Positions 8,299 to 61,561 of a stretch of DNA of 64,000 bases are shown here, piece by piece. The stretch comes from Azolla caroliniana (taxonomy: Eukaryota > Plantae > Polypodiophyta): NCBI GenBank assembly GCA_043228905.1, contig JBHGNT010000027.1:248001-312000 (forward strand), read 5' to 3'. A program made the translations under genes and the position numbers. Each line of letters begins with the position of its first letter. The first letter of the stretch is position 1. Under the pieces are notes generated by a model. That model did no database searches and was not told the origin of the DNA. It was given only the letters and a program-made list of their open reading frames with translations.

Positions 8299-8339
8299 CT
8301 TTTAATTTAATAAGTCTGTTCGGTTTTTTCCCTTTTTCT

Positions 8340-8363
8340 CTCTCCTCCATATGCATGGGAGTT
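8340..8363 (-). promoter_or_regulatory. conserved 5' leader motif upstream of nad4 (same copy at 23745-23768 for cox2)
   Basis: AACTCCCATGCATATGGAGGAGAG, 65 nt before the nad4 ATG. Confidence 0.5.
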
Positions 8364-9586
8364 AAAGGTTGGTTCTTCAACAAGTCGCAGCAATGCAATG
8401 CAATGCAATGCAATGAAGGCCTTCGCTTTGTCTCGTCGACCGCAAACAAAGCGGCGATGGGCTGGCTTTCCGCGTTTCCGTAAAGAAAATCGAAAGAACT
8501 CTGATTGATTCTTATTCGTAGTTGGGATGCAGGGATAGATTTATTTCTTCCTCGAAGAACCGTACGAACGATTAGGCCGCTGCGATTTCCACACGCAGAC
8601 ACGCGGATTCAGCATGAAGGGCGGGCGATTTATTCCCCGATCGAACGAATGAATGAATGAATGAATAGGGTGTCGTTCGCAATGACAAGGAACGTTAGCT
8701 GGAAACGCGGTCAACTAACGGGCACAAGTGCAATATTTTCATTTTGGTGTGACTCTTGGTTGGAGAAGGCCACACCACAGTTGGTCTCTTCTCCATAAGC
8801 CGGACCGCCAACGTCAAGGCGAGATCACATTGGTCCAGTCCCCGCATAGCCAGTGGAAGGGTGAGGTGCATCCACTCAGATAGCATGGGGAGGTCGAATG
8901 ACTGCGGCCACGTCAATCCGCTTCTTTTCTTTTCTTGTTGGGCCGCTAGCAATTGTCTAGCTTCTGCTACCAACTCCCCCATCGGGCCGTCTGACTTTAC
9001 CGTAGCCGATAAGTAGCGTTAATCGTCTTCATCGCGCTGATGAAGCAGCGGGTTCATCCACCACCTTGGTTCTTCCCCGCAAGCAACTTCCGCCGTATTA
9101 TCCATAGCTGTTCATCAAGAAGGCCTAGAGTTAGTTTTCCGATAAGATTCAAGCTACAATTTCAAACAGCACCTTTTCTTCATGAAGCGCAAGAAAACTG
9201 CACTGCGGAAGAAGAAGAAGCGGTAAAAAGTGTAATATAAATGGCTACCAAAGTTCTTCTTTTGAACTTTCAAGAAGGCCTGAATATTCATGGATTATTA
9301 TACGATAATCTTTAATGCGGCTCAGATTGCGGAAAGAATTGAATGCTGGAATTTCGAAATTCCGTTGGTAAAATTCAGAAGGATCATGCAAGAAGGCAAT
9401 ATCATCTTCTGGCCATAATCTGCGAATCCAGCAAAGCAAAGCAAAGCAGCACTTTTCTTTTCACTTTAAACCGAGCCGGCGGCAATCTTGATGAATCACT
9501 GGCAAGAAGATGCTTTGCACTTTTCTTTCCACTTTAAAGCAGCAATCTTTTCACTCGGAAATGGCAAAAGAGCTTGGAAGAAGAAT

Positions 9587-9657
9587 AGGCTAGGGACGGA
9601 GTCGAACCGTCATTCCAGGATTTGCAGTCCAATACATTGCCATTATGTTACCCAGCC
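9587..9657 (-). tRNA. trnC: tRNA-Cys(GCA)
   Basis: GGCTGGG acceptor stem, anticodon loop CTGCAAA, T-arm GGTTCGACTCC. Confidence 0.95.
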
Positions 9658-9863
9658 AGCAGAACGTTTTTCCCGCTTAAATGAAGAGAGGCGGGACTCT
9701 CATTTAAGGGGGGTGACCTTAGGCCACCCTTTGAAATAATCTAAAGCCTTACAATCAATTTCTGCGATGCCATAAAATGTGAACCAACGACAACGATTTT
9801 GGGCAAAATAAGAATTAGTGATTGAAAAAGACCCGCAGCTTGCTTGTGAAGCCGACCAGCGTA

Positions 9864-10014
9864 CTGCCAACACGACTTGTTTATGCCTATTAAAGAACCT
9901 TTTAATGCTAATTCACAGAAAACTATACGAAGCATACAAAATAACTAATATACGAAACGGAAGCGACCGATGGAAATACGTCAGTTTCTTACTCATGTAA
10001 ATAAACTATTTCTT
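9864..10014 (-). pseudogene. rps14: 5'-truncated rps14 copy downstream of rps1
   Basis: RIVFCELALKGSLIGINKSCW C-terminus, cut at the repeat boundary. Confidence 0.85.
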
Positions 10015-10065
10015 GCTGCTGTTGGTGCTTAGGAAGAGACTGCTGGTTAGGGGGCGGCTTTCGAT

Positions 10066-10945
10066 TCAATGGTGCTTTTTCTTTTCTGAAACTAGCGCAG
10101 CACGAATCTCTTCTTTTACCGCAATATTACGCTTTATTGGGTTCGTGTTCAGAATTCTGGATGTCCTACTTCTGCAGAATGTCTCATTTCTGCTTCTGCG
10201 AAACTTTAGACCTTTGTTTCCAAATTTCCCACTTCTGCTTTTATTCTTGTGGAACCTAAATTTTCTACTTTTGTAAAATTTCTTCTTTTTGTGGAACCTC
10301 TCACTCTCATTTTTGCGAAAGGGACTCCTGAAAAGGAAAGCCACGAACCCTGCAGTAACTGCGGCATACCCACCCTTCATTAAATTGAAAATCAACCCTT
10401 TGACCTTGTCGCGGTCACGCCAAATCTTGGTTAGTTCAATCCGAACTATTTTCTTGTTCAATGGTTTTGACAAAATAATTTCCGGTTTACGTGGTTCTGG
10501 CAAAATAATTTTTGGTTCACGAAGCTCTTCCACTTTTTCCAGATTCGAATCTTCGATCCCAACAGAATTAAACTTTGCTTACTTGGTGATTGGCGCTCTT
10601 GCTGTCACTTCATGTTTTAAAAGGATTACAGGAGTTTTCAGTCCTGTATTCACCAAGATCATATTCTGCGGGTGTAACAGTTTGATTAAACCTCTGTCCC
10701 CATCATGACTTTTGTCCCTGTATTATAATGGTTTCACTGAATATTATAGAGCGCCTTCACGTAGTAAAGTGGGACTAGAATTATACAGTTAACCTAAGCC
10801 GCACCATTACTGCTGGGGCTTGGCTCCCGAACCGTGCATGAGCTATAGGCCTCACACGGCTCTTCCCGTCATGCTGGCATCTCCTCCCCGTATTTAGCTA
10901 TGACGGAAGGCGTTTCGAGTTATGGTATGATTTCACTCCAAATTG

Positions 10946-10976
<31 letters not shown>

Positions 10977-11608
10977 TTAGGACGGTGATTTAACGCGAGT
11001 TTGAATACCTTACGTATGATTCGCTGTCATCTACGATCCAATTTGAAGAAGTTAATGGGTCCCCGTGTCAGCTCTGGAGCTTGGTGAAGAATCCTATTTC
11101 CAAGAGCATACAGCCTGGCGGGCCTTCCGTTTCCGGAGCTTCATGGGCGTTGCCCCGTTCCCCAACCAGATGCTTGGATGTGAGCTATACTCCGTAAGGG
11201 ATGCCGCGAGCGTAGATGGTCTGTCTCAGACAGAAGAGCCATCGATAACTTACTTTTCTCGGGCGTCAAGGGATGCTCAATGACAATCCCCAAGTTGTCA
11301 CTGCCTTGCTCCCTCCCGCTATTACGATAACGAGTCCCGTGGTCAGCACCGTCGATTGGGCCACGAAGCTTACACTCATTCATTGTTCGTCCTGCGCCCC
11401 GGGCCTTTTGCTTTTGCAGTTTCGAAGGTAGCCGCCCTTCCATCAAGGCCTGGGAGTCAACTGAACATCTCAGCTACTGGCGGAAAAGATCGGCGATCTC
11501 TTTTTGTCCGCTTTTGGTTGAAGTTCACGTTATTAATAGCGTGAGCCGTTTTGCAGATATTGCTTAGGGCTAACAGATCACACTGGGGAATAATTAACCA
11601 AAGCTCGT
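10066..11608 (-). CDS. rps1: ribosomal protein S1; exons 11608-11584, 10787-10066 (true stop uncertain)
   Basis: ACG start, MSFG(Q)LFP; NTGLKTPV, IELTKIWR, KGGYAAVTAG. Confidence 0.88.
10788..11583 (-). other. group II intron rps1i25
   Basis: Inserted after nt 25; GTGTG start; domain V GAGCCGTGTGAGGCCTATAGCTCATGCACGGTTC; AAC end. Confidence 0.92.
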
Positions 11609-13174
11609 TCTGCTTTCTCTTATTCTTGTTCTGTTTCTCGTTTCGAGGTCTGTTTCTAATATCTATGGGAGTTTGTGAGAGGTCCCTCAGGTGAAAGCAG
11701 CTTACATGGGAATGAAAGGGATCCTCTTAGCGGCATCTCTAGTAAGAGATGAAGCTAGGAGGTGGGCTGTCTAGTCCCTTAGCCTTCACCGAACCCATTA
11801 TGCTCAGATGCATACAAAGGCTTATGGTTCCTGGCGAACTTAACACCCGAGGCCAAACCTCGCCTCGAATGTAGGAGCTGCTATAAGTCACTTTATATAG
11901 AGACCTTCTTTCAGGGATCAAAAGGCCCCCACGACTCAAGCAGTTGGATGGTTGGATGGGGTGTTCTAAGACCTTTTTCATAGCGTCATACTACCCATAC
12001 ACGATTCCAAATCGGAATCTTTCCCGTCGCTACCGTCTTCGGTGGGTTAGGGGAGGTGGAGATCGGGCTCGGAAAAGATCCAGAACAGGGTCTCCTCTAA
12101 TCAATCCCGAACAAGTTCTCGAAGCTGTAATCTTACGTAATGTCGTGTGATCAATTCAAGAACCGCTTCTGTTCTGCGCCGATAATCTCAGGATCGCCGC
12201 ACATTGTTTCTAGTTCGGAGAGAGACACGATCGCCTCTCCTTTCTCCAAAATCGATAGATACTGCCCCCGTAACCTCAGAGGCGAATTTTGCCATATACC
12301 CAACCCTAACCATGGGAAGGTTTCAGAACTGAGCAAACCAAGGTTCCCATCCCAAGGCGGCAGAGGTAAAACACCTGCTTGCTTGCTTGCTTGCTTGCTG
12401 GGGATGTTAGAACCAACCAGTGCCGATGAACCGGTTCATCATGAAGGCCGGCCCGGCCCGGCCCGGCCCGGCCGTTTTCACGCATGAGGAGAAAGGTAGC
12501 CTTCTACCGCCCGCCGCCGAGAGAGCACCTCACGCGAAACCCGCTCCGCAACAACAAAGTCGAGCTAATTCGCCGAAGGCCTCTCGGAACTCAGAGAATC
12601 TGCAGAACAAGGGAACGGTCTGAGAAGTCACCTTAGCACTGCTGACGAGAGAGAATGATACCGAGGAAAGGAAAGGAAAGGAAAGGAAAGGAAAGGAAAC
12701 ATTTCTCCCTTTCCAGGAGAATCGGGGGGCGGGCAGATTCCAAGCTAACGACCGAGATGAAGGAAAATAAAAATGGGAAAGGGTAGTAAGTGGGAAACAG
12801 GAGGAATGGATGATGATGGAACGGTGATGTATCAGATAAGGTGGACCAGCGCTGATAGACAACGGAGAGTAGAACCTGAACCCGACTCTATCGTTGGGTA
12901 TTCGACCCCTGAACCTTTGGCCGGGTACTCATCTAATGCATTCCGAAAAATACAGTAGGAATTGGACCTACCGAGCACCGTATAGAATCGTAAAAGGAAG
13001 ACAACTAGGTGATTCGTCGAGCCCCAACCGGCCGGATCCCCTGCCCTTGATGTTATAAGCCCACCTTCAAAGCAAAGCTGGCCCGCTGAACCCCACAACG
13101 TCAGGCTTTTCAACCAGTCAAGTTTCCATTGACCTGCATTCTGCTTGGGGAAGGGCAAGGCCCATACCTTGTTG

Positions 13175-13972
13175 TCATAAGCCCCCCCACCAATAGATAG
13201 GGACAGATGGAAATGACCGAACCACGTCCACAGAATGCCGGTACCGAGCAGCTGCTTCGAAGCCGAAGTGATGCGAAGGACTAAAATGACCTATATATTA
13301 ACAAATACCGCGTATCGTCGAGAGAATGGTCCCTGTAGTAACGTAGGACCCATAAGACCCGATGGCTAAGAGGAAAGTAAAACCATAAATACCGTCGGAA
13401 ATGATGAAGAGTGCTTCGTAATATTCCATTCCCTAAAACCCGGTGGGAACTGGAGCCAGCCGAACGATAGCTACTAAAGCGTGAACCGCTTATTATTTTA
13501 AACCTGCGAGTATGGCATGATGAGCCCAAGTCACGGCAGCTCCAGAGGAAAGGAGAATAAGGGTATTTAGAAAAGGGATTCCCCAGGGATTTAAAACCTC
13601 AACTCCTTTGGGGGGCCGAATAGCTCCGATCTCTACCGCGAGTGCCAAAGATAAATAAAAGAAAGCCCAAAAAAAGGCTAGAAGAGACATAACCTCCGAG
13701 ACGATAAACAAGAGAAAACCGTAGCGAAGCCCTAATTATACCACTTTGGTATGACGTCCTTCGTAAGTAAATTCACATGTAACATCGCGCCGCCATACAA
13801 ACATGGTGTATAAGATCAAGCTTAGGCCTAAAGTGAGGAGTGTTCCGTCTCCCGCGAATGAATGCATATACATAACAGCACCGATGGTGCTTGCTAAGGC
13901 TCCGAGTAACCCCAGGAGAGACCATGGACTTGAATCCACCGGATGATAGGGATGCTCTTAGGAGACACTCGT
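13175..13972 (-). CDS. cox3: cytochrome c oxidase subunit 3
   Basis: 798 nt; ACG start MSVS(Q)EHPYH; [21 protein letters not shown]; ends IYWWGGL*. Confidence 0.95.
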
Positions 13973-14929
13973 GTTATTTATTTAATGAATTCACACGAAA
14001 CGGTTTGTACATGAAAGAGTCTTGGCTACTATAATCAATGTAAGGGAGATGAATCCTATTGCAAATACAATCGGAATGAAGAAATCCTAAAATCCAATAA
14101 TCAGTTCCACAACCGAAGAGACTTCTAGATCTTTCAGGATTTCTAGGCCACCCGAAAGATCGGGTAGTGTATTCTACGACAGATTGAGGAGCACCTGCGG
14201 GAACAACTCTTCGTTGTTATTTTAAAGAGTTGCGATGTCCTCGTGCAATTCGGTCTATAATCTTTCTAAGCTGTTTATGACTATGGGCATGTCTTATCCA
14301 ATCTGTTTCTTTTCCTCGGTGCTTTATACCTAGGGCAGTCTCCTGCATTCATGGCAGTTCCTATGGTTGCAAAAACAACAAGGAGTCGGTTCCCGTATAT
14401 ACCCGGCTTTTCTTGTATGCTTTCGGCAAGCAAAAAAAACGCTAGCGGGCCTACCACGCTTCGCGCCTGCGTCTTTGCCAGACAGTATTTGCCAGTAGTG
14501 CCATCCCACCCGACCTGAGGATTTAGTTTGTCCCTTGCTAAAATATCTTTGAAGAACTTGTACTGATTTTCCAGGTCGGTCCTCGCGAGCGGATATGGGC
14601 CCTAGAGGATGGTGTAGAAACTCTCTGCCCGTAAGTCGTGCCTGAAAGCGGTTCATCCGGGTGAAGCCGGCGGCGAGGAATTGACTGGTGCTGCGTTCAC
14701 TGCTTGCTCGAAGGCCCGTATCCGCGCAGGCAGTAAGCAACAGATTGGTTCGTAACAAAAACAGCTTAGAAAAGAAAAAGAATAAAGTTATTTCCTATTA
14801 AACTAGTGATTGTAAAGAAAAAAATCCTTCACAACGCCAAGGTATTTTAGCAAGACACTACATAAGACTTTCGCCCTGGATGATATATGGGTTCTCATGA
14901 GAAAGAATGGTCGGTTTCCTTTTAATGAA

Positions 14930-15056
14930 GTAAAATCCACACCTTGACGCCCGGAATCCCGTAACGAGTGAATGTTTATTAGGAACCGAACTGATGGGCT
15001 TTCCCTAAAGTAACACCAAAAGTCTACCTCCTTTCGTGCGTCCTTCGCCTCCTCCT
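14930..15056 (-). pseudogene. adjacent fragments of rpl2 3' ([11 protein letters not shown]) and rps3 3' ([13 protein letters not shown]); mirror at 49764-49890
   Basis: Near-identical to ~33893-33952 and ~29998-30036. Confidence 0.8.
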
Positions 15057-16314
15057 AAATAAATTCACTTTCTCTAAAGTAGCCCAATGGATTGTTAACA
15101 AGTTCTACGATATACTTATCTTCAAGCCAACCAAGTACTTTAGCACCTTATTGCATACATGTTCGAACTCAACTCCAGGTCGCGTATAATCACTCTCATT
15201 GCAATCAACCATGGCTACTCCAATATTAATTAATTTTGGCTTTCTTTCTATAAACTTTCGTTCCAGCCAGGGAAACGGTGAAGGATAGTGATTTACGGCA
15301 TGACTGTACAGTTTAGCCGTCACCACTTGTAATTTGAGTCGATAGCCAAACACGGATTATGCCCTCTACGCAGACAGAGAACCGCCCAACCTAGCTGCGC
15401 AAATTGCTTGCTTGCTTGCTTGCTTGCTTGCCCCCTTCTTGCGGATGCGGAAGAACTTGCTTGCTGCTAAGTTTTATTAGCGCAGGTGAAGGCCTTTCCG
15501 CTGTCTGTGAGGCGGATAACGGGCAATCTCACTCATTGCGCTGTTTTATTGACTTCGCCACGGCACCACTTTTTTGGCGGATAAACGGCCTTCATGCTGC
15601 CGTTAGTCGAGGCGGCCCGATGAACCAGTGCAGCAGAAAAGAATTTCGGTTATAGAATGGCCGGTCTCTTTCACTTGCTTCTGATCAAAGGCCGGCAGAG
15701 AAGTAGCCGTACAGATAGCATAGGCTGCGGCCTATTCTTGCAGAGAAAACAACTTCGAGAATGATAACCCGTAGGTACCGGTGGGTTCGATCAGTCCCTG
15801 GAGTTCGCTAGGTGATATCTATACGGCAAGGAGGATATGAAGCTATCCCTACGGAATCCAATCCCTGTGGTCCTAGATCGGTCCCGAAGCACTAGTCCGG
15901 TACCTGCTGCAATCAGTCCCTATGGTACTTGCTGCAACCAGTCCCGAACCCAAAGGTTTGCTACGCTGCCGCTGTAGGCATAGTTGGTACCGATGTTCAC
16001 TGAGATTGGGAATCCCCGCTTCGTGCTGATCGTATCGTATTCTCTTCGCTTATTGCAGCTGTGGTAATCGAGGCTTTGCTTTGTATTCTCGAAGTACGAA
16101 CGCTAGCTGATCGCTTCGTATCCTTTCAACCGTTGAGGAGCTGCAACTGCTTGGCGTTGTCTATGGCCATGATTGTATCGCGGTTGGTTCGGGCGGGAAT
16201 CAATCAAATCGCCACTTTTCACGCGCCCGCCGGTTCATCCCGGAGGAACCGCACAGGAGTAATTCAGACTGTTTCTCTAGTCAATTTCGCGTGACCGTAA
16301 GACGCAATTCTGCA

Positions 16315-16386
16315 AGCGGAAAAAGGGACTCGAACCCTCAACTCCAGCCTTGGCAAGGCTATACTCTACCATTAAGCTATTTCCGC
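16315..16386 (-). tRNA. trnG: tRNA-Gly(GCC)
   Basis: GCGGAAA...TTTCCGC cloverleaf, anticodon loop TTGCCAA. Confidence 0.95.
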
Positions 16387-17129
16387 CAGCGGAACCAGAG
16401 CCGAGTGCGGTTCTTCCCCCGTAGAGAAAGCGCTATAGCTTTCGGGGGAAGAACCGCAATGAAGACTTCATTGCGGTTCCCTTGGAACTATTGACTTGAG
16501 ACTTCGATGACTCATCGATAGGTCCATGCCCGGAGAGATTCGAACTATCCCGGATTCGAAGTTTGGTGCTCGAGCTACAGGCACAAGTTGACCTTACAGA
16601 CCGAACAGAGGCTAGTAAAATCTAACGCTTAGCTTAGAAGGTCGTAAGATCAGACCAGACTTCGCCCGGAAAACGAACGTAAAGCATTGAAAGAGCGTTG
16701 CTTAGTGGCTGGCTTTGGCCGCCTTTACGACCCAAAGACGAATCTCCGGGTCCCAGCTTATTATCCTGCAATGTTACGGATTGACTGTTACTGGTGCTAG
16801 GTAAGGAGTTTCAGTTTTGGGCGTCACTTTCGAAATATCTCGAGTAATGGGTTCATGTGAGTGCATGAACAATCCAACTACTCTACTAGGCTGCTTCCCG
16901 CCCTGTTTCGCAGCTTGCTCCCCTTCGGCGGCACGGCACGGCACGGCACGGCACGGCACGGCACGGCACGCACGCACCTGTCTTCCCGCATTCCGTCCGC
17001 TGAGCGCAAAGCGTCGACAAAGAAAGCAGCTACCTTTTCATTATTATACTGTAATCCCAGCGCAAACAAAAAAACTGCCATGAATATCGAGAACGGAACA
17101 AGAAGCCACAACGAAATCAAGTCAAGTCT

Positions 17130-17364
17130 ACGGAAGCTTAATCCGTTTGTTCTTCGTAAACAATTGGATACAAAGTCAGTACTAACCCATAAGGCTCTGT
17201 TTCAGATTCAAAACTAGGGTTCAGCTATGAGATTTGACTCTAGGTCACGCCTTCGGTTTGTGTTTTCCGCTTGAAACATAATATCACTCGTTGTACCGGA
17301 ACGGATCCCTGAAAAGTTACTTAATCCGCTGTTAGCGTCAAAAATTGTAAACCCCCTGAAGTTC
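17130..17364 (+). pseudogene. rpl6: 3'-truncated rpl6 copy at the IR boundary
   Basis: Identical to the rpl6 5' part up to CKPPEV, then unrelated sequence. Confidence 0.85.
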
Positions 17365-17596
17365 TGCTTAACTCTGTTTGTTTGTGAAATCAACAATTGC
17401 GGCTTACATCCGACACGGGTCCCGCCCATTCTCCCATCTGGCACCCTCTCATAATGTATCACTCTTGGCATGCCCACGGCCGGGTAGGCGCGAATTCTTC
17501 CAGTCTATGCCGCCGCCCTATCATATAGTCTGTTACATATATATAGGTGAATGCTCGCGGGAAACAGCGGCGTTCTCTGCCCAAGCACTATGAACA

Positions 17597-17622
17597 AACT
17601 GCCATGAGTACCGAGGACGGAA
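17597..17622 (+). promoter_or_regulatory. conserved 5' leader motif upstream of rps4
   Basis: AACTGCCATGAGTACCGAGGACGGAA, 47 nt before the ATG. Confidence 0.55.
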
Positions 17623-17643
17623 AGGTAATGGACAGAAACAGAT

Positions 17644-18558
17644 ATGTTGGCATCAGGATCCAAAATTCGTCGTTAGATGAGAGAAAACGTTTGGCATAAA
17701 AAACTCAATCCGAGAAAGAGAGCCCTTATTCGGGAGTGGGGATTTCCCTTTATTTGAAAAGAGAGGCTTTTGACAAAATCGTGGAAAAGAGGGAAATCTG
17801 GGAATCTGGCCGACCTAATTCTGGGGTTCTCCTCTTCCCGAAAGGAGCTCCGGAAAAGACCATTCGAAAGATGAAAATCTGAAGATTTCTCTGAAAAATC
17901 ACATGCTTCGTGAAAGTCGTCCCTCTCTTACGGATTACCCATGAAAGGAAAGATATAGAGGCTCGAACCGTTACTAAAAACTATTAAAGAGAAACACATC
18001 AATCTTTTACCCTTTCTAGAAAAAAGATTGGACGTTATTCCGGTTTGCATTCCCTTTCGCGAACATATTCTCTAAGCCAGATAGCCAATAAATCATAAAC
18101 ATATTTATGCCAATCCCAAAGTAGTCAATATTCTCGGTTCCACGGTACCCTGCGGTGATCTTACACCCATTAAAGAAGCTTCTTGAGATCTTACCAAACT
18201 AAACATAGTGTAATGCAGAGGAAAAAAAGAATGAATTAGAAAATCGATAGAATAACTGAAATAAAGAAAATGATCTCTTTCAAGGCCTCTCTCCTATCTC
18301 TTCATTCATAAAGATTCTTCCTATTATCCTTCCAGTCACAAAGGTTATTGGATACCTGAGAAGTATCCTCTTTTCTGAAAAAAAACTTCTCTTTTTTCTT
18401 TTCATTGTCTAGACTATTACTACCCACATTATCTGGAGGTTGAGTATGAAAAACCTAATGTTGTGGTATTCCCCGAACCTCACCATAATTATCTGAAACT
18501 TTCCTATAAGAATAAAATAGAGAAACACTGTCTTCCCCAAAACAGGAAAACAAAGTAG
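17644..18558 (+). CDS. rps4: ribosomal protein S4
   Basis: MLASGSKIRR(Q)MRENVW; LEKRLDVI; (Q)AR(Q)PINHK; HYLEVEY. One frame throughout if stops are edited; stop position approximate. Confidence 0.85.
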
Positions 18559-23715: not shown

Positions 23716-25419
23716 TAAGTCTGTTCGGTTTTTTCCCTTTTTCTCTCTCCTCCATATGCATGGGAGTTAAAGGTTGGTTCTTCAACAAGTCGCAGCAATG
23801 CAATGCAATGCAATGCAATGAAGGCCTTCGCTTTGTCTCGTCGACCGCAAACAAAGCGGCGATGGGCTGGCTTTCCGCGTTTCCGTAAAGAAAATCGAAA
23901 GAACTCTGATTGATTCTTATTCGTAGTTGGGATGCAGGGATAGATTTATTTCTTCCTCGAAGAACCGTACGAACGATTAGGCCGCTGCGATTTCCACACG
24001 CAGACACGCGGATTCAGCATGAAGGGCGGGCGATTTATTCCCCGATCGAACGAATGAATGAATGAATGAATAGGGTGTCGTTCGCAATGACAAGGAACGT
24101 TAGCTGGAAACGCGGTCAACTAACGGGCACAAGTGCAATATTTTCATTTTGGTGTGACTCTTGGTTGGAGAAGGCCACACCACAGTTGGTCTCTTCTCCA
24201 TAAGCCGGACCGCCAACGTCAAGGCGAGATCACATTGGTCCAGTCCCCGCATAGCCAGTGGAAGGGTGAGGTGCATCCACTCAGATAGCATGGGGAGGTC
24301 GAATGACTGCGGCCACGTCAATCCGCTTCTTTTCTTTTCTTGTTGGGCCGCTAGCAATTGTCTAGCTTCTGCTACCAACTCCCCCATCGGGCCGTCTGAC
24401 TTTACCGTAGCCGATAAGTAGCGTTAATCGTCTTCATCGCGCTGATGAAGCAGCGGGTTCATCCACCACCTTGGTTCTTCCCCGCAAGCAACTTCCGCCG
24501 TATTATCCATAGCTGTTCATCAAGAAGGCCTAGAGTTAGTTTTCCGATAAGATTCAAGCTACAATTTCAAACAGCACCTTTTCTTCATGAAGCGCAAGAA
24601 AACTGCACTGCGGAAGAAGAAGAAGCGGTAAAAAGTGTAATATAAATGGCTACCAAAGTTCTTCTTTTGAACTTTCAAGAAGGCCTGAATATTCATGGAT
24701 TATTATACGATAATCTTTAATGCGGCTCAGATTGCGGAAAGAATTGAATGCTGGAATTTCGAAATTCCGTTGGTAAAATTCAGAAGGATCATGCAAGAAG
24801 GCAATATCATCTTCTGGCCATAATCTGCGAATCCAGCAAAGCAAAGCAAAGCAGCACTTTTCTTTTCACTTTAAACCGAGCCGGCGGCAATCTTGATGAA
24901 TCACTGGCAAGAAGATGCTTTGCACTTTTCTTTCCACTTTAAAGCAGCAATCTTTTCACTCGGAAATGGCAAAAGAGCTTGGAAGAAGAATAGGCTAGGG
25001 ACGGAGTCGAACCGTCATTCCAGGATTTGCAGTCCAATACATTGCCATTATGTTACCCAGCCAGCAGAACGTTTTTCCCGCTTAAATGAAGAGAGGCGGG
25101 ACTCTCATTTAAGGGGGGTGACCTTAGGCCACCCTTTGAAATAATCTAAAGCCTTACAATCAATTTCTGCGATGCCATAAAATGTGAACCAACGACAACG
25201 ATTTTGGGCAAAATAAGAATTAGTGATTGAAAAAGACCCGCAGCTTGCTTGTGAAGCCGACCAGCGTACTGCCAACACGACTTGTTTATGCCTATTAAAG
25301 AACCTTTTAATGCTAATTCACAGAAAACTATACGAAGCATACAAAATAACTAATATACGAAACGGAAGCGACCGATGGAAATACGTCAGTTTCTTACTCA
25401 TGTAAATAAACTATTTCTT
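23716..25419 (+). repeat. 1.7-kb direct repeat, copy 2
   Basis: Matches 8311-10014. Confidence 0.95.
24992..25062 (-). tRNA. trnC: tRNA-Cys(GCA), repeat copy
   Basis: Identical to 9587-9657. Confidence 0.95.
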
Positions 25420-29951: not shown

Positions 29952-32337
29952 CCGAATTGAGTCCCTTCTTGTTCTTTGAAACATGTTTGGAATACAGAAT
30001 CCACACCTTGACGCCCGGGATCCCATAACGAGTGAATATTTCTGCTCTTGCGTAATCAATATAATCAGAAGATACATGTAAGGATATTGAACCATATTTC
30101 ATACATTCAGTTTGAGCTATTTCTGCACCATTCGATCAACCTGGACGACAAATACAGATTCCCTTCACACATTCGCAGTTTTCAATCTATTAGAATATGG
30201 ATGTACAAATTTATACAAATGATTTCTTTTTTTCTGGTCCCCAAGGTATCTCCTAAGCTATTGGAAAAGCACTTTAATGGAAAAAATCAGCTCTTACTGG
30301 CTTAATCGGGATATTAGTGCTTGTTTCACTAGATGAAAAAAGTTACATTTCAGGCCACCAAGGTTTAATCTTCTTCCGGCAACGATGACTGCATACTTTC
30401 TTAGTTCCTCTGAATCAGGCGTTCACTATGTGCGAGCGTCAGCGGGCATCTCCTCCTGAAGAAGAGTGACTATTGCACGGATCCTTCTCTCTGGGTTTCG
30501 TACATTCACGTCAGGCATCCTTATTATAGTGGTACCGACAGCACAGATTTCTTGCTTTCTCACGTAAGGCATTCCCTATATACAGACACAGTTTCCTCTC
30601 TGCAAACCTACCCCGAGCATTCCTCATTTTCTCAGAGCGTCGGGCGGCATCCCTACTATAGGAAAAGGATAACAGAGAGGGAGAGAGAAGCAAAAGATTG
30701 TCATCAGTTATGTTAACCGTAGTGGGGTCAGAATGAATTTAGTTCTTCATACGAAGAAAGTGTTGCACGACCAGAGGCATAATAGGTGCGGTTGCCAAGG
30801 GGCGGCGAGAGTTTTCGGAGGCCTTCTCGCCGCGGTTTTCCCCTAGTAATCCTCCCTCTTCTCTCCTTTTTCATATCGCCCTGCGGTCCGTGAGATAGAG
30901 TCGAGAGTCCACTTGCGCCTAGTAAGAGGGTTCATGCGGGCTCCGCATGAATGAACCGCTTCATCGGCTTGACGAGGGCAAAGCACAGGAAAGGCAGATG
31001 GGCATTTCCTATGTCCCATCCCCCTCTCGTAACTAGTGCAGGCTACACAAGTGCTCTCCGAACCGGGCTGGATAGTCACCCATCACACGGCTCTCTAACT
31101 TGACGGGTGAAAGGCCGAGTGGGAACCCCGGAAATTACCCCTTTCCCCTTCGGCTCTCAGAGCGTGACAAGTGCATAGGCTCCTTCCCGTTTTCTACTTG
31201 GCATTCACCAAGTGCCGGTTCCGCCTTAGGAGGGTAGGCAGGTGGTATGGGCCCTCTGACTTCTTTCCGGGGCTTTCCTCCCATAAGATCTCGCCGTTGT
31301 TTCCTACATGGCTTGTCCAATTGTTGATCGAACGCCCTGTGTTGGGATGTCATTTAGTGTTTTGTCCCCAGTAACATGGGTAACCTGCTCTATCCTTTCC
31401 TTTCCCTTCTGTGCAATGGGTGGGTCGAGGGAAGATCATTCGGCCCAATTAATCAAAACCCTCAGTAGGCATAGAGCGAGGCAGCGTGCGTTCGCGCTCC
31501 CCATTCGCCGAAATTAAGTGCCAATGGTTAGCTGTCGCCGGGTAGCCAGCCCCGAACTTCGATTCGCCAAGCTTTGCCCTCATCTTAATACCGAAAGCAG
31601 GCTCGCTCTATGCTGTTGAGTTACCCGTAGACTTTTTGGTTCAAAATACGGGCGGGCCTTCGTTCGTTCCGCCAACAAACAAGTTCTTCGAACTTTAACC
31701 TCCTTGCCGCACATGCTTTGGTCCTCGCGTTCGTTACCGAGCAAGAGTAAGTGCAACGCCTTTGTACAGTACATAATTGAGCGCACGCAATTTTTCATGC
31801 AGGAACTAGACCGGCCGCCCTCTCGATTAGCGTCATCAACAATATCATCAACCAAAAAATAATAGTAAGCATCATTGAACTAGAAAGAAGAATACATGAA
31901 TGAATGTCCTTTTAGGGAAATGATGAATGATACACCTACCAAGGCGAAGGTCAACTTTGCGATTTCTTCCTCTAGTTTTCCTCTTTCTTCCCCCAATTTT
32001 ATCTTTCCCTCCTTTAGTTTTCTTTTTCTTTTCCTCGGACAAAATCCTGGGAAAAATTGAACGGAAAAAATATCTAAAATCTACATCCTAATACAACAAT
32101 TTTCCATAACAGTAAATGGAGTCAAGAGTTACTCTGTCTGGCTGTGGGAAAAGCAGCCGAAAGAAGCCAGCCGTGTGAAGGGCTGGCTTCCATTCACCAG
32201 CCAGCGCGGACTAAATCAAGTGCTCTTCGAACCGTGCAAGATGGTTGCCCATCACACAGCTCTTCAACCCAAGTTGCCTATATCGTGCGTTGCGTGGTGG
32301 ATCCCAAGTCTTTCAAGCAAGAAGCGCTTGATCCTCT

Positions 32338-35735: not shown

Positions 35736-36509
35736 GGATTCTTTGGTTTCTTCCCTTCACTCAAAGCATCCGTGACATCAAAGAAAGGTGGTACCATGGC
35801 AGGCATGGGGTGTACCCAGTGTCAACGTTATCAATCATATATACGATGATTGATCGCTTCGCGCATAGAATATACCATATAGCTGATGTTACCCATGAGT
35901 GAACAGTGGGCTGGCGTGGTTAAGTGGGCCTTCGGCCCGTGGTTGGTTTTTCCCCTTCCTTTTAATCAACTGTATATATAGGTGCTGTGATCCCGAAAGC
36001 TAGGCACATTGCATTATGTTTGTATATGTGGCCACTATTCCATACGATCCAAAGTGTTGCCTGCTCAAAGCAGCAGCTTGTTAGCATAAACCAAATAAGA
36101 GCTCATTTCAACAGCAGCAGAATTCTGCACAGCCAAACAGATAATGCGATCCTGTCCTGTTGCATGCATAACAATACAGCATGGTGGAAAGGGTAGCTAT
36201 CATCCTCTCTCCCCCCGGAAGCCGAGCGGGGGAAGCGCTATGTGCCGATGAACCAACCGGTTCATCAAACAGGTTCTTCATGCATGCATGAAGGCCTTCA
36301 TGATGATGAAAACCGCTTCTTTTCTTTTCTTCGGCCGGCTTCTTCCGCCTTTTTGTCCGCGGAAGCAGCGCATGGTGCTTCTCCGCCGGGCCGGGCCGGG
36401 CCGGGCCGGCCGTTATGCTTTCGATTTGATCTCACTATGTCCGGATTTGCTTGTGCAAACTATAAGCGGTGTAATTCCGCTGTATTTTTCTTCTGACCTG
36501 ACTTCCTGA

Positions 36510-37205: not shown

Positions 37206-37231
37206 AACAGCCATGATTATAAAGAACCAAT
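37206..37231 (+). promoter_or_regulatory. conserved 5' leader motif upstream of the atp6/rps2 fusion start
   Basis: AACAGCCATGATTATAAAGAAC, 66 nt before ATG 37272. Confidence 0.5.
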
Positions 37232-37271
37232 CTCAGATTTTTATGAAACCCTGCCTGAACTGAACTTTATC

Positions 37272-38126
37272 ATGGCTTGCAGTCCACTTGAATAATTTGC
37301 TACTGTTCTATCAGTTTTCAAACGGATACATAGATTTTGAACATCGAAGAAAGAAAGCATATTATGCGCCGCTCTACCGTATGAAATGGAAAAAGGAAAG
37401 AAAGAGTATTATTCCAAAAAGGAAAAGAAAGTCATTTTTTAAAGATTACCGAATACAAGCGCACATTCGGGCTATTAGGGACCCCCAACTCCATATTATT
37501 AAAGATATTTATACGGATTTAGACGCGGAAGGGCTATTATTGATTTGGAAAAAACACTTTTATTCTTGAAGATTGCTTGTAATGCGATTGGATCTATCAT
37601 TCGTAAGGAGGGCCATTTATTGTTGGTGAATATTGATCTTTTGTACGATGACACAATGAAAAAAATGGCGAGAAGGACCAATTAAAGTCATATCAATTCC
37701 AAATGGATTGGTGGTTTCTTAATCAATTGGGAACATATGAAACATGAAGAACGCTTTAAGTATTCATCCACGTGGCGGCATTCTAGTCTACGTTTTTTAA
37801 AGATGTAAAGATATTTCGAAGGACTGATAACATGCTAAATTTCAGATAGTTTAGTTATACCGAATGCACGTAAAGATTTCATAGCTATATTTGAAGCTAA
37901 TTGATCATGAATATTTATTGCATTCCTGGTGGATTCTACTCTCCTAGAGGGATTACATAGGTTAGTTATTTATCTCATTCTGGTAAATAATGATTCCGTG
38001 TGGTTCACAAATCCATTTTGCTAATTGGTCACGAAAATAGTCATTCATTCGAAAAAGGCTTGAGAACCCAGCAGAAAAGCCAGTAAAATAAGGAAAATTC
38101 AAAAAAGAAAAAAGAATACCCACTAG
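37272..38126 (+). CDS. rps2: ribosomal protein S2 with an atp6-derived N-terminus (alternative start 37386; stop at 38063 or 38126)
   Basis: YLYGFR..AIIDLEKTL; KWIGGFLINW; in-frame upstream MACSPLE(Q)FA. Confidence 0.85.
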
Positions 38127-39592: not shown

Positions 39593-39947
39593 GCTTTAGG
39601 CTTTAGCGAGGTTCATGAAATCTCGAAGAAAGCAGCAAGCAGCTGGGGTCTTTGAATAGTTAACGTCTCACAGGTCATGAGGCGGCTCGAAAGTCAAAGA
39701 ATGTATATGATACTAACCGTACATTTTCCCTTCCCGCGCTGGTAGCTCAACTGTTAACCGCTTCATCCGCGATTGGTCTACGGTTTCAATCCCTTCATGC
39801 GCTTCATGAAGAAGCGCTTCCTCCTCGCGCATAGCGCTTCATCCGGCCGGGCCGGGCCGGGCCGGGCCGGGCCGGCATTTACCCAACTTGGAATTAACTT
39901 CATCAAGTCAGTACAGTTAACGAAAGGACGCTGGCGCTTCCCTTTGA

Positions 39948-40165
39948 GATTCCCTCCAGCCACAGGTTCCCCTACGACTACCATGTTACGACTTCACCCC
40001 AGTCACTGACCCAACCGTGATATGCGCCAAGAAGACCACCAATACCAAAATGGGCCACACTCAACTAGGCATGGAACACTTTAGTAATGGGTGATCTCTG
40101 GTCGATGCTTCGGGCGAAACCAATTCCCAGGGTGTGACGGGCGGTGTGTACGGGGCCCGAGTACA

Positions 40166-41813: not shown

Positions 41814-42653
41814 GTGCAATATTTGAATTTTGGTGTGACTCTTGGTTGGAGAAGGCCACACCACAGTTGGTCTCTTCTCCATAAGCCGGACCGCCAACGT
41901 CAAGGCGAGATCACATTGGTCCAGTCCCCGCATAGCCAGTGGAAGGGTGAGGTGCATCCACTCAGATAGCATGGGGAGGTCGAATGACTGCGGCCACGTC
42001 AATCCGCTTCTTTTCTTTTCTTGTTGGGCCGCGCCGCAATTGTCTAGCTTCTGCTACCAACTCCCCCATCGGGCCGTCTGACTTTACCGTAGCCGATAAG
42101 TAGCGTTAATCGTCTTCATCGCGCTGATGAAGCAGCGGGTTCATCCACCACCTTGGTTCTTCCCCGCAAGCAACTTCCGCCGTATTATCCATAGCTGTTC
42201 ATCAAGAAGGCCTAGAGTTAGTTTTCCGATAAGATTCAAGCTACAATTTCAAACAGCACCTTTTCTTCATGAAGCGCAAGAAAACTGCACTGCGGAAGAA
42301 GAAGAAGCGGTAAAAAGTGTAATATAAATGGCTACCAAAGTTCTTCTTTTGAACTTTCAAGAAGGCCTGAATATTCATGGATTATTATACGATAATCTTT
42401 AATGCGGCTCAGATTGCGGAAAGAATTGAATGCTGGAATTTCGAAATTCCGTTGGTAAAATTCAGAAGGATCATGCAAGAAGGCAATATCATCTTCTGGC
42501 CATAATCTGCGAATCCAGCAAAGCAAAGCAAAGCAGCACTTTTCTTTTCACTTTAAACCGAGCCGGCGGCAATCTTGATGAATCACTGGCAAGAAGATGC
42601 TTTGCACTTTTCTTTCCACTTTAAAGCAGCAATCTTTGAACTCGGAAATGGCA
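41814..42653 (+). repeat. partial, slightly diverged copy of the 1.7-kb repeat upstream of rrnS
   Basis: Matches ~8728-9566 with a small indel near 42031. Confidence 0.9.
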
Positions 42654-43395: not shown

Positions 43396-45847
<2,452 letters not shown>

Positions 45848-45894
45848 TCCCTTTCTCTTCCGTCGAATCCCTTTCCTCGGCACTTTATACCCAG

Positions 45895-45920
45895 GGCAGT
45901 CTCCTGCATTCATGGCAGTT
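45895..45920 (-). promoter_or_regulatory. conserved 5' leader motif upstream of atp1 (longer copy at 50459-50509)
   Basis: AACTGCCATGAATGCAGGAGAC, 73 nt before the ACG. Confidence 0.55.
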
Positions 45921-46494
45921 CCTAGCAAGAAAGAGATGGGAAAGGGAAGTAACCTCACGACGAGGTGAACCATGTCATTGATATAGAGGGGAGGGATCGG
46001 ACCTTCCCCCAGTGTTGGTTTGCATTATAAAGAAAGTAAGTTTTGACAGAATAGACTGGGTGAATGAAGCGCTAAAGCCGTGTATCCGTAGCTATGCAGA
46101 GACGGAGAGAAATAGATATATACAACTGAAAGGTGAGGGACTACGCGGAGGGAGGGCATCCACATAGCTCTAAATCATAGGATCAAATTCCAGAGTGAGC
46201 CCCGCAGTGCAACTACCTTTCGCGGAGCCGACTCTTTCGATCGATTGGCAAAAAAAAATGGATATTTGTCGTATGGAGAAATTGGATGAACGAATAGACG
46301 AGTAAGGTATTAACTAAACTGCAATTATTCTAATTTGAGTCGACTTTTTCCATTCCATCTCCCCGCTTCGCTGCTCTATTCGGGTTTATTCCTTCGCCTT
46401 GCTCGAGCCAAGCCTTCCATGACCTGCTGGGCTGTAGGACCAATCCAAACCTTCTGACGTTGGTGAGTAGAGACAAATAGCTCTATGGTGGTAT

Positions 46495-46941
46495 TTAGAC
46501 ACGACGTTTTTTAGGGGGTCAGCATCCATTATGTAGCATTGGGATTACGTCGTGAATTCTGATAGTAACAGGACCTCCCTCTTTTGAACTTTTCGGCGAA
46601 AATCCCTTTCTTACAAGACCAATTCCTTTTATTTTCACTTCAACTGACCTAATTTCGGGTTAAGTGGCAGCTTACGCGACACGTTCCGCAGTTGCTTAAG
46701 CTGCATACTTGTCCGAGCGACGGAAACCCTTAAACCCTCTTGAACAACCTGAGGAGGACCCTGTTCTTTCATCTCCCTTGCAATTTATTATGATAATGAA
46801 AGTATTACTAAAAGTTGGTTAAGTATGGGCAATACCGTGGTGCTTTCTTGGCTTTTAGTGGTGTTTTCCCCATTTCTGTTAGCGGCGCGGCTACTATTAC
46901 TAGTGTTCAGAAGGCTGCTTTTACATAATTGTATTCTTCAT
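46495..46941 (-). CDS. rps11: ribosomal protein S11 (start 46941 or 46926)
   Basis: GFKGFRRS..YAA(Q)ATAE; HNGC(R)PPKKRRV*. Confidence 0.88.
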
Positions 46942-47024
46942 TTCTATTCCTTCGGTTTCGTTTTCTTCCTGGCGTCTTGCCTTCTCTCATTTTTGTGAAT
47001 GAAAAACGAATTATTCTTCTTTCG

Positions 47025-47387
47025 TTGATTGATTGAAACTTTTCTTGACTTGCGACAGATCTTAACATTGCTGTAGGTTCATTAACCACGTAATGGCAAT
47101 CCTGCTTTGTGACGGAATCCGCGGTAACGGCTGATATTAATTAATCATTTGATATATTACTAAATTTCTCTCTTTAATTCCGAATCAACTAGGAAATTGT
47201 TTCAACGTACTATTATGCTAATCTGGTCAATTTAGTGCCGAGTCAGATTACTAACCTTAGTGTTATCGCCGGGACCTGATTAATCACAAACCCAAGTGGC
47301 TTTTTTGGGTCCAGTTCCGGAGATTTAGGTTGAGGCAAGTCTGACTTATTTATTGGAAACTGATTTGGTTCCTGGAATATATGACGC
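47025..47387 (-). CDS. rps13: ribosomal protein S13 (GCG start and CAA stop both need editing)
   Basis: SYIPGT; GPKKA; YRGFRHKAGLPLRG(QR)T; 120 aa. Confidence 0.88.
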
Positions 47388-47390
47388 GAT

Positions 47391-47690
47391 TTGTTTCTTT
47401 TCTCCTTGTTTTCTACGTATAATTTCATTTCAATATTTTATACCTCTTCCTTTATGAACTTCAGGGGGTTTACAATTTTTGACGCTAACAGCGGATTAAG
47501 TAACTTTTCAGGGATCCGTTCCGGTACAACGAGTGATATTATGTTTCAAGCGGAAAACACAAACCGAAGGCGTGACCTAGAGTCAAATCTCATAGCTGAA
47601 CCCTAGTTTTGAATCTGAAACAGAGCCTTATGGGTTAGTACTGACTTTGTATCCAATTGTTTACGAAGAACAAACGGATTAAGCTTCCGT
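47391..47690 (-). CDS. rpl6: ribosomal protein L6
   Basis: ACG start MEA; GYKVSTNP(Q)GS; KLGFS; CKPPEVHKGRGI; QGEKK followed by CAA (edited stop); rpl6-rps13-rps11 order. Confidence 0.88.
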
Positions 47691-47721
47691 AGACTTGACT
47701 TGATTTCGTTGTGGCTTCTTG

Positions 47722-47747
47722 TTCCGTTCTCGATATTCATGGCAGTT
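47722..47747 (-). promoter_or_regulatory. conserved 5' leader motif upstream of rpl6
   Basis: AACTGCCATGAATATCGAGAACGGAA, 57 nt before the ACG. Confidence 0.55.
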
Positions 47748-48433
47748 TTTTTGTTTGCGCTGGGATTACAGTATAATAATGAAAAGGTAGCTGCTTTCTT
47801 TGTCGACGCTTTGCGCTCAGCGGACGGAATGCGGGAAGACAGGTGCGTGCGTGCCGTGCCGTGCCGTGCCGTGCCGTGCCGTGCCGTGCCGCCGAAGGGG
47901 AGCAAGCTGCGAAACAGGGCGGGAAGCAGCCTAGTAGAGTAGTTGGATTGTTCATGCACTCACATGAACCCATTACTCGAGATATTTCGAAAGTGACGCC
48001 CAAAACTGAAACTCCTTACCTAGCACCAGTAACAGTCAATCCGTAACATTGCAGGATAATAAGCTGGGACCCGGAGATTCGTCTTTGGGTCGTAAAGGCG
48101 GCCAAAGCCAGCCACTAAGCAACGCTCTTTCAATGCTTTACGTTCGTTTTCCGGGCGAAGTCTGGTCTGATCTTACGACCTTCTAAGCTAAGCGTTAGAT
48201 TTTACTAGCCTCTGTTCGGTCTGTAAGGTCAACTTGTGCCTGTAGCTCGAGCACCAAACTTCGAATCCGGGATAGTTCGAATCTCTCCGGGCATGGACCT
48301 ATCGATGAGTCATCGAAGTCTCAAGTCAATAGTTCCAAGGGAACCGCAATGAAGTCTTCATTGCGGTTCTTCCCCCGAAAGCTATAGCGCTTTCTCTACG
48401 GGGGAAGAACCGCACTCGGCTCTGGTTCCGCTG

Positions 48434-48505
48434 GCGGAAATAGCTTAATGGTAGAGTATAGCCTTGCCAAGGCTGGAGTTGAGGGTTCGAGTCCCTTTTT
48501 CCGCT
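48434..48505 (+). tRNA. trnG: tRNA-Gly(GCC), IR copy
   Basis: Mirror of 16315-16386. Confidence 0.95.
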
Positions 48506-50529
48506 TGCAGAATTGCGTCTTACGGTCACGCGAAATTGACTAGAGAAACAGTCTGAATTACTCCTGTGCGGTTCCTCCGGGATGAACCGGCGGGCGCGTG
48601 AAAAGTGGCGATTTGATTGATTCCCGCCCGAACCAACCGCGATACAATCATGGCCATAGACAACGCCAAGCAGTTGCAGCTCCTCAACGGTTGAAAGGAT
48701 ACGAAGCGATCAGCTAGCGTTCGTACTTCGAGAATACAAAGCAAAGCCTCGATTACCACAGCTGCAATAAGCGAAGAGAATACGATACGATCAGCACGAA
48801 GCGGGGATTCCCAATCTCAGTGAACATCGGTACCAACTATGCCTACAGCGGCAGCGTAGCAAACCTTTGGGTTCGGGACTGGTTGCAGCAAGTACCATAG
48901 GGACTGATTGCAGCAGGTACCGGACTAGTGCTTCGGGACCGATCTAGGACCACAGGGATTGGATTCCGTAGGGATAGCTTCATATCCTCCTTGCCGTATA
49001 GATATCACCTAGCGAACTCCAGGGACTGATCGAACCCACCGGTACCTACGGGTTATCATTCTCGAAGTTGTTTTCTCTGCAAGAATAGGCCGCAGCCTAT
49101 GCTATCTGTACGGCTACTTCTCTGCCGGCCTTTGATCAGAAGCAAGTGAAAGAGACCGGCCATTCTATAACCGAAATTCTTTTCTGCTGCACTGGTTCAT
49201 CGGGCCGCCTCGACTAACGGCAGCATGAAGGCCGTTTATCCGCCAAAAAAGTGGTGCCGTGGCGAAGTCAATAAAACAGCGCAATGAGTGAGATTGCCCG
49301 TTATCCGCCTCACAGACAGCGGAAAGGCCTTCACCTGCGCTAATAAAACTTAGCAGCAAGCAAGTTCTTCCGCATCCGCAAGAAGGGGGCAAGCAAGCAA
49401 GCAAGCAAGCAAGCAATTTGCGCAGCTAGGTTGGGCGGTTCTCTGTCTGCGTAGAGGGCATAATCCGTGTTTGGCTATCGACTCAAATTACAAGTGGTGA
49501 CGGCTAAACTGTACAGTCATGCCGTAAATCACTATCCTTCACCGTTTCCCTGGCTGGAACGAAAGTTTATAGAAAGAAAGCCAAAATTAATTAATATTGG
49601 AGTAGCCATGGTTGATTGCAATGAGAGTGATTATACGCGACCTGGAGTTGAGTTCGAACATGTATGCAATAAGGTGCTAAAGTACTTGGTTGGCTTGAAG
49701 ATAAGTATATCGTAGAACTTGTTAACAATCCATTGGGCTACTTTAGAGAAAGTGAATTTATTTAGGAGGAGGCGAAGGACGCACGAAAGGAGGTAGACTT
49801 TTGGTGTTACTTTAGGGAAAGCCCATCAGTTCGGTTCCTAATAAACATTCACTCGTTACGGGATTCCGGGCGTCAAGGTGTGGATTTTACTTCATTAAAA
49901 GGAAACCGACCATTCTTTCTCATGAGAACCCATATATCATCCAGGGCGAAAGTCTTATGTAGTGTCTTGCTAAAATACCTTGGCGTTGTGAAGGATTTTT
50001 TTCTTTACAATCACTAGTTTAATAGGAAATAACTTTATTCTTTTTCTTTTCTAAGCTGTTTTTGTTACGAACCAATCTGTTGCTTACTGCCTGCGCGGAT
50101 ACGGGCCTTCGAGCAAGCAGTGAACGCAGCACCAGTCAATTCCTCGCCGCCGGCTTCACCCGGATGAACCGCTTTCAGGCACGACTTACGGGCAGAGAGT
50201 TTCTACACCATCCTCTAGGGCCCATATCCGCTCGCGAGGACCGACCTGGAAAATCAGTACAAGTTCTTCAAAGATATTTTAGCAAGGGACAAACTAAATC
50301 CTCAGGTCGGGTGGGATGGCACTACTGGCAAATACTGTCTGGCAAAGACGCAGGCGCGAAGCGTGGTAGGCCCGCTAGCGTTTTTTTTGCTTGCCGAAAG
50401 CATACAAGAAAAGCCGGGTATATACGGGAACCGACTCCTTGTTGTTTTTGCAACCATAGGAACTGCCATGAATGCAGGAGACTGCCCTAGGTATAAAGCA
50501 CCGAGGAAAAGAAACAGATTGGATAAGAC

Positions 50530-50847
50530 ATGCCCATAGTCATAAACAGCTTAGAAAGATTATAGACCGAATTGCACGAGGACATCGCAACTCTTTAAAA
50601 TAACAACGAAGAGTTGTTCCCGCAGGTGCTCCTCAATCTGTCGTAGAATACACTACCCGATCTTTCGGGTGGCCTAGAAATCCTGAAAGATCTAGAAGTC
50701 TCTTCGGTTGTGGAACTGATTATTGGATTTTAGGATTTCTTCATTCCGATTGTATTTGCAATAGGATTCATCTCCCTTACATTGATTATAGTAGCCAAGA
50801 CTCTTTCATGTACAAACCGTTTCGTGTGAATTCATTAAATAAATAAC
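50530..50847 (+). CDS. putative editing-dependent ORF (106 codons) in frame with cox3; mirror at 13973-14290 (-)
   Basis: ATG lies 69 nt after an atp1-type leader; amphipathic N-part and one hydrophobic helix; six stop codons would need U-to-C editing. Confidence 0.35.
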
Positions 50848-61452: not shown

Positions 61453-61478
61453 AACTGCCATAAATATCAAGAACAGAC
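61453..61478 (+). promoter_or_regulatory. conserved 5' leader motif upstream of nad1
   Basis: AACTGCCATAAATATCAAGAACAGAC, 109 nt before the ACG. Confidence 0.55.
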
Positions 61479-61561
61479 CTTGTGTTGGCAAAGAAAGCCA
61501 ACGCAAGTCCCTCTAATGCTGCTTTGAAGGCATTTTCTTGAAACCTATCTTAGTTGACGAA

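Follow-up and report, generated by a model that had tools for sequence, protein, structure and literature searches.

How plant mitochondrial mRNAs obtain their 5′ ends, and how ribosomes find them, is poorly understood; flowering plants have many 5′ ends and gene-specific factors. Among the closest described sequences are the conserved blocks I–III in the mitochondrial 5′ UTRs of flowering plants (Pring et al. 1992, summarised in PMC3865367). According to the available part of PMC5009733, the 5′ ends of mRNAs in Arabidopsis mitochondria mostly show no protein footprints, and the known 5′ factors leave none; plant mitochondria have no known 5′–3′ exonuclease (PMC9181182, available part). Most plant mitochondrial promoters are described in the accessible text of PMC2175370 as having a YRTA core upstream of the start. 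Against this background, we analysed a short element that recurs before the protein genes of a fern mitochondrial locus.

Gene content of the window

The window, meaning the whole 64-kb stretch of DNA analysed, is mitochondrial DNA of fern type. In its genes, in-frame stops are read as Q or R, and it also contains ten tRNA genes, rrnS and six group II intron ends. The assignment to ferns follows from this editing pattern and from the atp1 intron. It contains an 8,381-nt inverted repeat (8984–17364 / 47456–55836). Pfam support was obtained for cox3, cox2, atp1, nad1, rps2, rps13, rps11, rps19, rpl6 and rpl2, and weakly for rps4 (S4 match, E 9e-4). Based on the likeness of their translations, we take further genes to be nad4, rps1, rps3, rpl16 and rps14; the N-terminal nad4 piece gave no Pfam match. 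In the cluster rpl6-rps13-rps11, the intact rpl6 stands first. rps14 lies at 27168 (−), about 2.2 kb after rpl16, without the element and without a clear start codon, and a Pfam search for rpl5 between these two genes found none.

A frame of 106 codons (14290–13973, −; repeat copy 50530–50847, +) continues in frame into cox3, upstream of the usual cox3 ACG. Pfam recognises only its cox3 part; RNA coverage of the frame is good, and the sequence leading into it duplicates the atp1 leader. The first ~9 codons of rps2 (37272–37300, +) resemble the atp6 N-terminus, and rps2 may therefore have taken over an atp6 leader. Two regions of the window look foreign or decayed: positions 1–2200 are AT-rich (35% GC) and foreign-looking, a broken frame there encoding a tandemly repeated peptide, and 55500–60000 holds decayed plastid-type pieces with weak Pfam matches to RNA polymerase, ATP synthase and carboxyl transferase.

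A conserved element precedes most independently started protein genes

A preliminary description of this DNA had reported a leader motif before ten different start codons, and all of its copies and spacings are present in the sequence. We defined the element by the core AAC(T/A)(G/C)CCAT(G/A)NNT(A/G), with a length of 14–28 nt (Table 1). The core has 12 exact matches in the window against 0.08 expected, and none of 100 shuffles reaches 12. As the pattern was fitted to the same copies that were counted, leave-one-out scoring is the fair test; here, 7/8 candidate copies outscore all 111,238 other positions. All 12 core matches lie in sense orientation 47–109 nt before a start codon, so that equal frequencies on the antisense strand or in intergenic DNA, which would have spoken against the description, were not observed. 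The matches stand before nine genes; three of them are copies within the inverted repeat, and the two recent duplicate pairs among the leaders (nad4/cox2 and atp1/cox3-ORF) leave seven independent origins among the nine genes.

Table 1. Positions of the element and of associated features in the window
Feature	Position	Strand	Remark
Element before truncated rpl6 duplicate (ACG 17130)	17073..17100	+	Consensus copy
Element before rps4 (ATG 17644)	17597..17624	+	47 nt before start
Element before nad4 (ATG 8298)	8336..8363	−	65 nt before start
Element before rps1 (ACG 11608)	11646..11673	−	ATA variant, 65 nt before start; repeat copy 53147–53174 (+)
Element before ORF in frame with cox3 (ATG 14290)	14332..14359	−	69 nt before start
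Repeat copy of cox3-ORF element	50461–50488	+	
Element before cox2 (ATG 23675)	23741..23768	−	93 nt before start; duplicate of nad4 leader
Element before rps2 (ATG 37272)	37206..37233	+	66 nt before start
Element before atp1	45893..45920	−	73 nt before start; RNA coverage ends across element
atp1 start codon ACG	45845..45847	−	RNA reads of related fern
Zone holding atp1 mRNA 5′ end	45900..45926	−	Best estimate 45913–45926; exact base inferred
Element before intact rpl6 (ACG 47690)	47720..47747	−	57 nt before start
Element before nad1 (ACG 61562)	61453..61480	+	ATA variant, 109 nt before start
Degenerate candidate before rpl2 (ATG 35735)	35791..35804	−	Not above chance
Weak variant before rrnS	42186..42199	−	14.2 bits, 425 nt before rrnS

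The nine genes are significant, and the tenth start codon of the preliminary description, that of rpl2, is at chance: its site (69 nt away when counted from the first aligned base, 67 nt from CTG) is equalled or beaten by 449 background positions (P ~0.46, leave-one-out) and was therefore not counted. The copy at 17073 that had been assigned to rpl6 exists, but the gene there is a truncated duplicate that breaks off where the repeat ends, at 17364. Both duplicate pairs named earlier are recent, although they differ in extent: the nad4 and cox2 leaders have 1,651 nt in common upstream, plus 53 nt counted from the motif, whereas the atp1 and cox3-ORF leaders share a 53-nt duplicate with only 4 nt upstream of the element.

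The element is sharply bounded. All copies agree in five core columns, and their flanks are unrelated; positions 15–28 are conserved as well (7/7 copies in the top 2%, leave-one-out), and positions 29–42 are alike in composition only. Immediately upstream (−14 to −1) no conservation was found, with 0/7 copies below 0.08. In antisense, these leaders reach no more than 2.2 bits, versus 18.8–23.4 bits in sense, and the purine fraction of the tail ranges between 0.46 and 0.78.

Altogether, the element precedes 9/11 non-linked protein-gene starts of the window. A clear copy is lacking at rpl2 and rps14. None of the five internal starts scored (rpl16, rps13, rps11, rps14 and the cox3 core) has an above-chance site within 150 nt, which bears out the earlier report of its absence before rpl16, rps13 and rps11. 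The same report for rps19 and rps3 holds insofar as the window-wide scan gave no match of at least 11 bits nearby. Among the RNA genes, 0/8 have an above-chance site within 150 nt, and no close copy precedes tRNA or rRNA genes; the weak variant before rrnS sits in a four-copy repeat (others: 9112 −, 24517 −, 55708 +). These results establish that the element is real, sharply bounded and common to most independently started protein genes of the window. Two spurious matches were encountered, one of 17.8 bits in an AT-rich, non-mitochondrial-looking flank of metagenome locus L001, and an intron site at 34501 that fits the looser pattern of the preliminary description.

Two simple explanations were rejected at this stage. 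The element is not an upstream ORF start, as had been noted before: its ATG occurs in all three frames with respect to the gene, opening uORFs of 16–76 codons, and two copies carry ATA. Nor does it reflect 5′ processing directed by a t-element or stem-loop, as there is no tRNA-like or hairpin structure just upstream; the 80 nt upstream fold better than shuffles in only 1/9 leaders (rps1, z −3.2).

RNA coverage falls across the atp1 copy

The search for RNA data returned 23 runs, three of which hold raw poly(A) reads, all of a related fern and from one study; such poly(A) RNA-seq cannot separate primary from processed ends. Coarse mapping covered 45300–53800 with two raw runs and two contig sets, and fine mapping covered 45781–45990 in 7-nt bins, with atp1 as the single finely mapped locus. 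Summed over the three runs, sense depth at atp1 is 116.8 at element positions 22–28, 104.0 at 15–21, 58.6 at 8–14 and 30.0 at 1–7, followed by 13.7 and 7.0 in the two bins upstream. These values include reads that cross-map from the duplicated cox3-ORF leader (12, 16) as well as reads from a diverged paralogue (3, 7). The loss per bin amounts to 0.44–0.54 across the element versus at most 0.13 in seven steps downstream.

Most atp1 read ends lie at positions 7–20 with no single pile-up, and few lie at positions 1–6 apart from read-through and paralogue reads. Loss of 5′ sequence is usual in such RNA libraries. If it applies here, the true atp1 end would lie at or just upstream of the element; with so few reads ending at positions 1–6, an upstream placement depends on this assumption. 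The 5′ end is probably at about −6 to +8. Since depth drops from 104 to 7 over the atp1 copy, the element stands at the mRNA 5′ end and mostly inside the RNA, within a few bases of that end. The relation to transcript ends anticipated by the preliminary description was thus seen at the one locus mapped finely.

By coarse mapping, depth steps more than 10-fold in the bins holding the atp1 and cox3-ORF copies, in the latter case from 2.5/4.0/6.7 upstream to 41.5/33.5/585. Coarse sense depth in the bin upstream of rpl6 is 0/0/0; this gene has the best element copy, yet ~10–70 times less RNA than atp1. At the rps1 copy, reads are too few to judge. Read-through RNA across the element is represented by 2–5 reads at atp1 and by 7 reads at cox3-ORF in run X22.

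Contigs of run X14 add details at atp1. Two deep contigs align only to 45918 (position 3), with four further letters unaligned, and one contig joins 46310 to 45926 (position −6) without microhomology. This single contig may represent a cut, with the 3′ end of the upstream fragment at −6. A circular contig of the same run corresponds to the rps11-atp1 spacer (45926–46310); in L001, the mitochondrial insert begins 5 nt away from the same joint, at 46305.

The atp1 ACG is read as AUG in 77/81, 60/72 and 18/18 sense reads of the related fern, for which there is no matched DNA run; with AUG in 155/171 sense reads in all, the start codon is therefore confirmed. Within the atp1 leader, a C-to-U change at 45865 (−), 18 nt before the start, appears in 57/61, 58/66 and 14/14 sense reads.

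The element in other plants

A motif-blind search with the atp1 coding pattern yielded 15 metagenome loci, of which three are 98–99.9% identical to the window. Two further loci (L015 and L008), both from one assembly, belong to another fern, and both carry the element. L015 contains the atp1 intron and shows 85.6% identity. L008 is intronless and 3′-truncated and has the edited letter at 5/6 alignable coding edit sites (L015: 1/7), and therefore looks like a cDNA copy; in this single case, the processed atp1 copy begins at −2 of the element.

In four separate comparisons, homology begins 2–6 nt upstream of the element: window atp1 against cox3-ORF (−4) and against L015 (−6, BLAST start 45926), L008 against L015 (−2), and rpl6 against run X19, which has no differences up to 47753 and then a joint. 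Upstream of the L015/L008 homology edge lies unrelated DNA, and downstream there is a 15-nt indel; the element is kept. The near-identical loci L009 and L001 show an alternative arrangement, in which the atp1 intron is joined to the rps3 intron via a 127-nt repeat (window 31156–31282 / 44873–44999).

In the remaining loci, presumably two moss-like and eight conifer-like ones, the sequences preceding atp1, nad3, cox1 and cob lack the element, the best score being 6.7 bits, and no site of at least 15 bits occurs in the 197,790 positions of these ten non-fern loci. A search for further fern loci in genome-contig and viral-contig collections gave no matches. Support for the terms “genome-wide” and “in ferns” of the preliminary description comes from one 64-kb window together with atp1 and rpl6 copies from a few other ferns.

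A putative protein site at the mRNA 5′ end

The presence of the same element before nine genes, together with the finely mapped mRNA beginning there, suggests that it is likely one common signal setting mitochondrial mRNA starts. A 5′-end signal is indicated by its restriction to first-in-cluster genes, its variable distance to the AUG and its sharp edge, and also by the RNA boundary and the absence of a common fold. What was observed directly is the element itself with its strand and position, the sharp edge on its upstream side and the fall of RNA at the atp1 copy. We see even chances that a single nuclear-encoded helical-repeat protein of the P-class PPR type binds the element and thereby defines or protects the mRNA 5′ end. 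Such a protein would bind to the element, on the first 14–28 bases of the RNA, and would define and protect a mature 5′ end a few bases upstream of it, an end that would be made or held after transcription. A single-stranded protein site is not expected to have a shared fold, and none was found among 10 leaders (z-scores +1.5 to −3.8). Of the roles offered in the preliminary description, a shared cis-element for 5′-end formation or RNA–protein binding agrees with these data, while translation initiation fits poorly.

Because two leaders are duplicated, we propose that the element may have spread by recombination, with genes cut off from old operons acquiring an existing leader copy. The cox3 ORF would have received the atp1 leader, and a further acquisition would link nad4 and cox2. 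This holds equally whether a protein or a polymerase recognises the element.

The read-through RNA and the joint at −6 lean towards a protein site. By analogy, the scarcity of footprints in Arabidopsis and the lack of a known 5′–3′ exonuclease would count against it, as do the lack of a clear copy at rpl2 and rps14 and the low rpl6 RNA. The missing RNA upstream of rpl6 also counts against it and is explained more simply by a promoter.

A promoter, a reading absent from the preliminary description, is the main rival, although we consider it less likely: the element would be a phage-type mitochondrial RNA polymerase promoter on and downstream of the start, with transcription beginning at about −2 to +8. 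It would account for the restriction to first-in-cluster genes, for the zero sense RNA upstream of rpl6, for the weak variant before rrnS and for the cox3 ORF, where a 53-nt duplicate with 4 nt upstream is accompanied by an RNA step of more than 10-fold. The plastid phage-type promoter PclpP-53 may be a precedent, as the available record gives it as made of downstream sequence; it reportedly has conserved sequence on and downstream of its 5′ end and little upstream. Conserved positions 1–28 with a 5′ end at about −6 to +8 match this layout, but they fit a bound protein equally well and are therefore not discriminating. Against initiation at the element stand the absence of anything conserved at −14 to −1, unlike the plant mitochondrial YRTA rule, the 0/8 RNA genes with a copy within 150 nt, and the X14 joint at −6, which hints at a cut. 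A YRTA promoter with a start near position 18 was rejected: atp1 positions 8–14 are covered by RNA at depths of 20.6 and 30.4 versus baselines of 3–5 and 2–4, and the NRTA-like positions 11–14 are therefore not the core for such a start.

Going beyond the window, we tentatively put forward, at slightly under even chances, that leptosporangiate fern mitochondria use one universal 5′-terminal signal, read by a single nuclear factor, for nearly every protein-coding unit. With the same reserve, this factor could be either an RNA-binding protein or a polymerase reading downstream of its own start.

That the element recruits the mitoribosome, via a ribosomal PPR protein or by pairing with small-subunit rRNA, appears very unlikely. 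Its sense orientation before protein genes only, its purine-rich tail and the rrnS 3′ end, which lacks an anti-Shine-Dalgarno as described before, would suit such a role. Consensus positions 2–10 are also complementary to a stretch of 9 nt close to the 3′ end of rrnS, which differs from the bacterial consensus at two positions, each adding a pair. However, the spacing of 47–109 nt is not fixed, making a ribosome role at a fixed distance improbable, and the element is absent before internal cistrons that need translation (5/5 scored). The duplex energies mostly do not surpass those of shuffles (0, 4, 7, 12, 17, 24 and 27 of 100 reach an equally good value, at differing rRNA sites), element variants break the pairing, and the target stretch is paired within the mature subunit. 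The same A-to-U change is present in vertebrate mitochondrial rRNA, which further counts against pairing. In rrnS (39944–40010, −), this U stands immediately ahead of the last helix, where bacteria have A by consensus, and the 3′ tail is purine-rich in place of the anti-SD. A genome-contig scan meant to compare this variant among ferns gave no matches, and we regard rRNA pairing as a weak lead. A stabilising protein that also promotes translation is counted here under the protein-site explanation.

Equally improbable, and already strained, is the idea that the copies are relics of one recombination-spread leader without shared function today: two recent leader duplications occur in the window, and the available texts describe fern mitochondrial genomes as repeat-rich (bioRxiv 2022.12.23.521604) and duplicated 5′ blocks in flowering plants (PMC3865367), but 12/12 matches stand in sense before start codons with none scattered, the invariant core columns lie between unrelated flanks, another fern retains the element despite a 15-nt indel in the region, and RNA ends coincide with it.

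Comparison with known systems

Such an element was not found described in the full-text literature searched; subscription papers were outside this scope, and “undescribed” is accordingly provisional. Term look-ups in the fern organelle papers PMC10027690, PMC11965612, bioRxiv 2022.12.23.521604, PMC13683679 and PMC12548569 gave no mention of it, and the supplements of PMC10027690 (10/11 files, the eleventh holding pictures only) contain no leader sequences with the motif. A shared 5′-end element is thus apparently undescribed in land plants. A single one would predict every mRNA start in a fern mitogenome, which is useful where editing makes start codons, would allow its binding protein to be sought via the PPR code, and would also explain the continued expression of orphaned genes in rearranged genomes. 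If the universal signal is real, a 50-nt cassette would be enough to express any gene, leaving the genome free to reshuffle.

Several described systems share individual features with the fern element; the comparisons follow the available parts of the sources cited. Like blocks I–III (PMC3865367), whose function is untested, it is a short shared sequence within ~100 nt of several mitochondrial start codons, but it has another sequence, is contiguous, precedes 9/11 non-linked starts and coincides with a 5′ end. The AxAAA motif, the proposed mS83 target (bioRxiv 10.1101/777342), is likewise a leader motif of mitochondria without SD/anti-SD, yet it spans 5 nt at ~19 nt before the AUG, whereas the fern element covers 14–28 nt at a variable distance. 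AxAAA occurs 16–20 nt before the start in 2/9 leaders checked, and an SD-like or AxAAA-like ribosome-positioning element was rejected on the 47–109-nt spacing and the absence at 5/5 scored internal starts. PclpP-53 is a single plastid promoter, unlike an element common to nine mitochondrial genes for which initiation is only putative; no promoter of its type in plant mitochondria was met in the literature searched. The chloroplast PPR10/CRR2 footprints (PMC5009733) are comparable in being single-stranded, 15–30 nt long and placed right where the leader begins, although those sites are gene-specific and this one is common to many mitochondrial genes. The yeast dodecamer bound by the PPR protein Rmd9 (PMC9181182) is similarly one short end element on most mitochondrial mRNAs, at the 3′ end and in fungi, while the fern element lies at the 5′ end, in a land plant, with a protein that is only putative. 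If the universal signal holds, it would be the 5′-end counterpart of that dodecamer.
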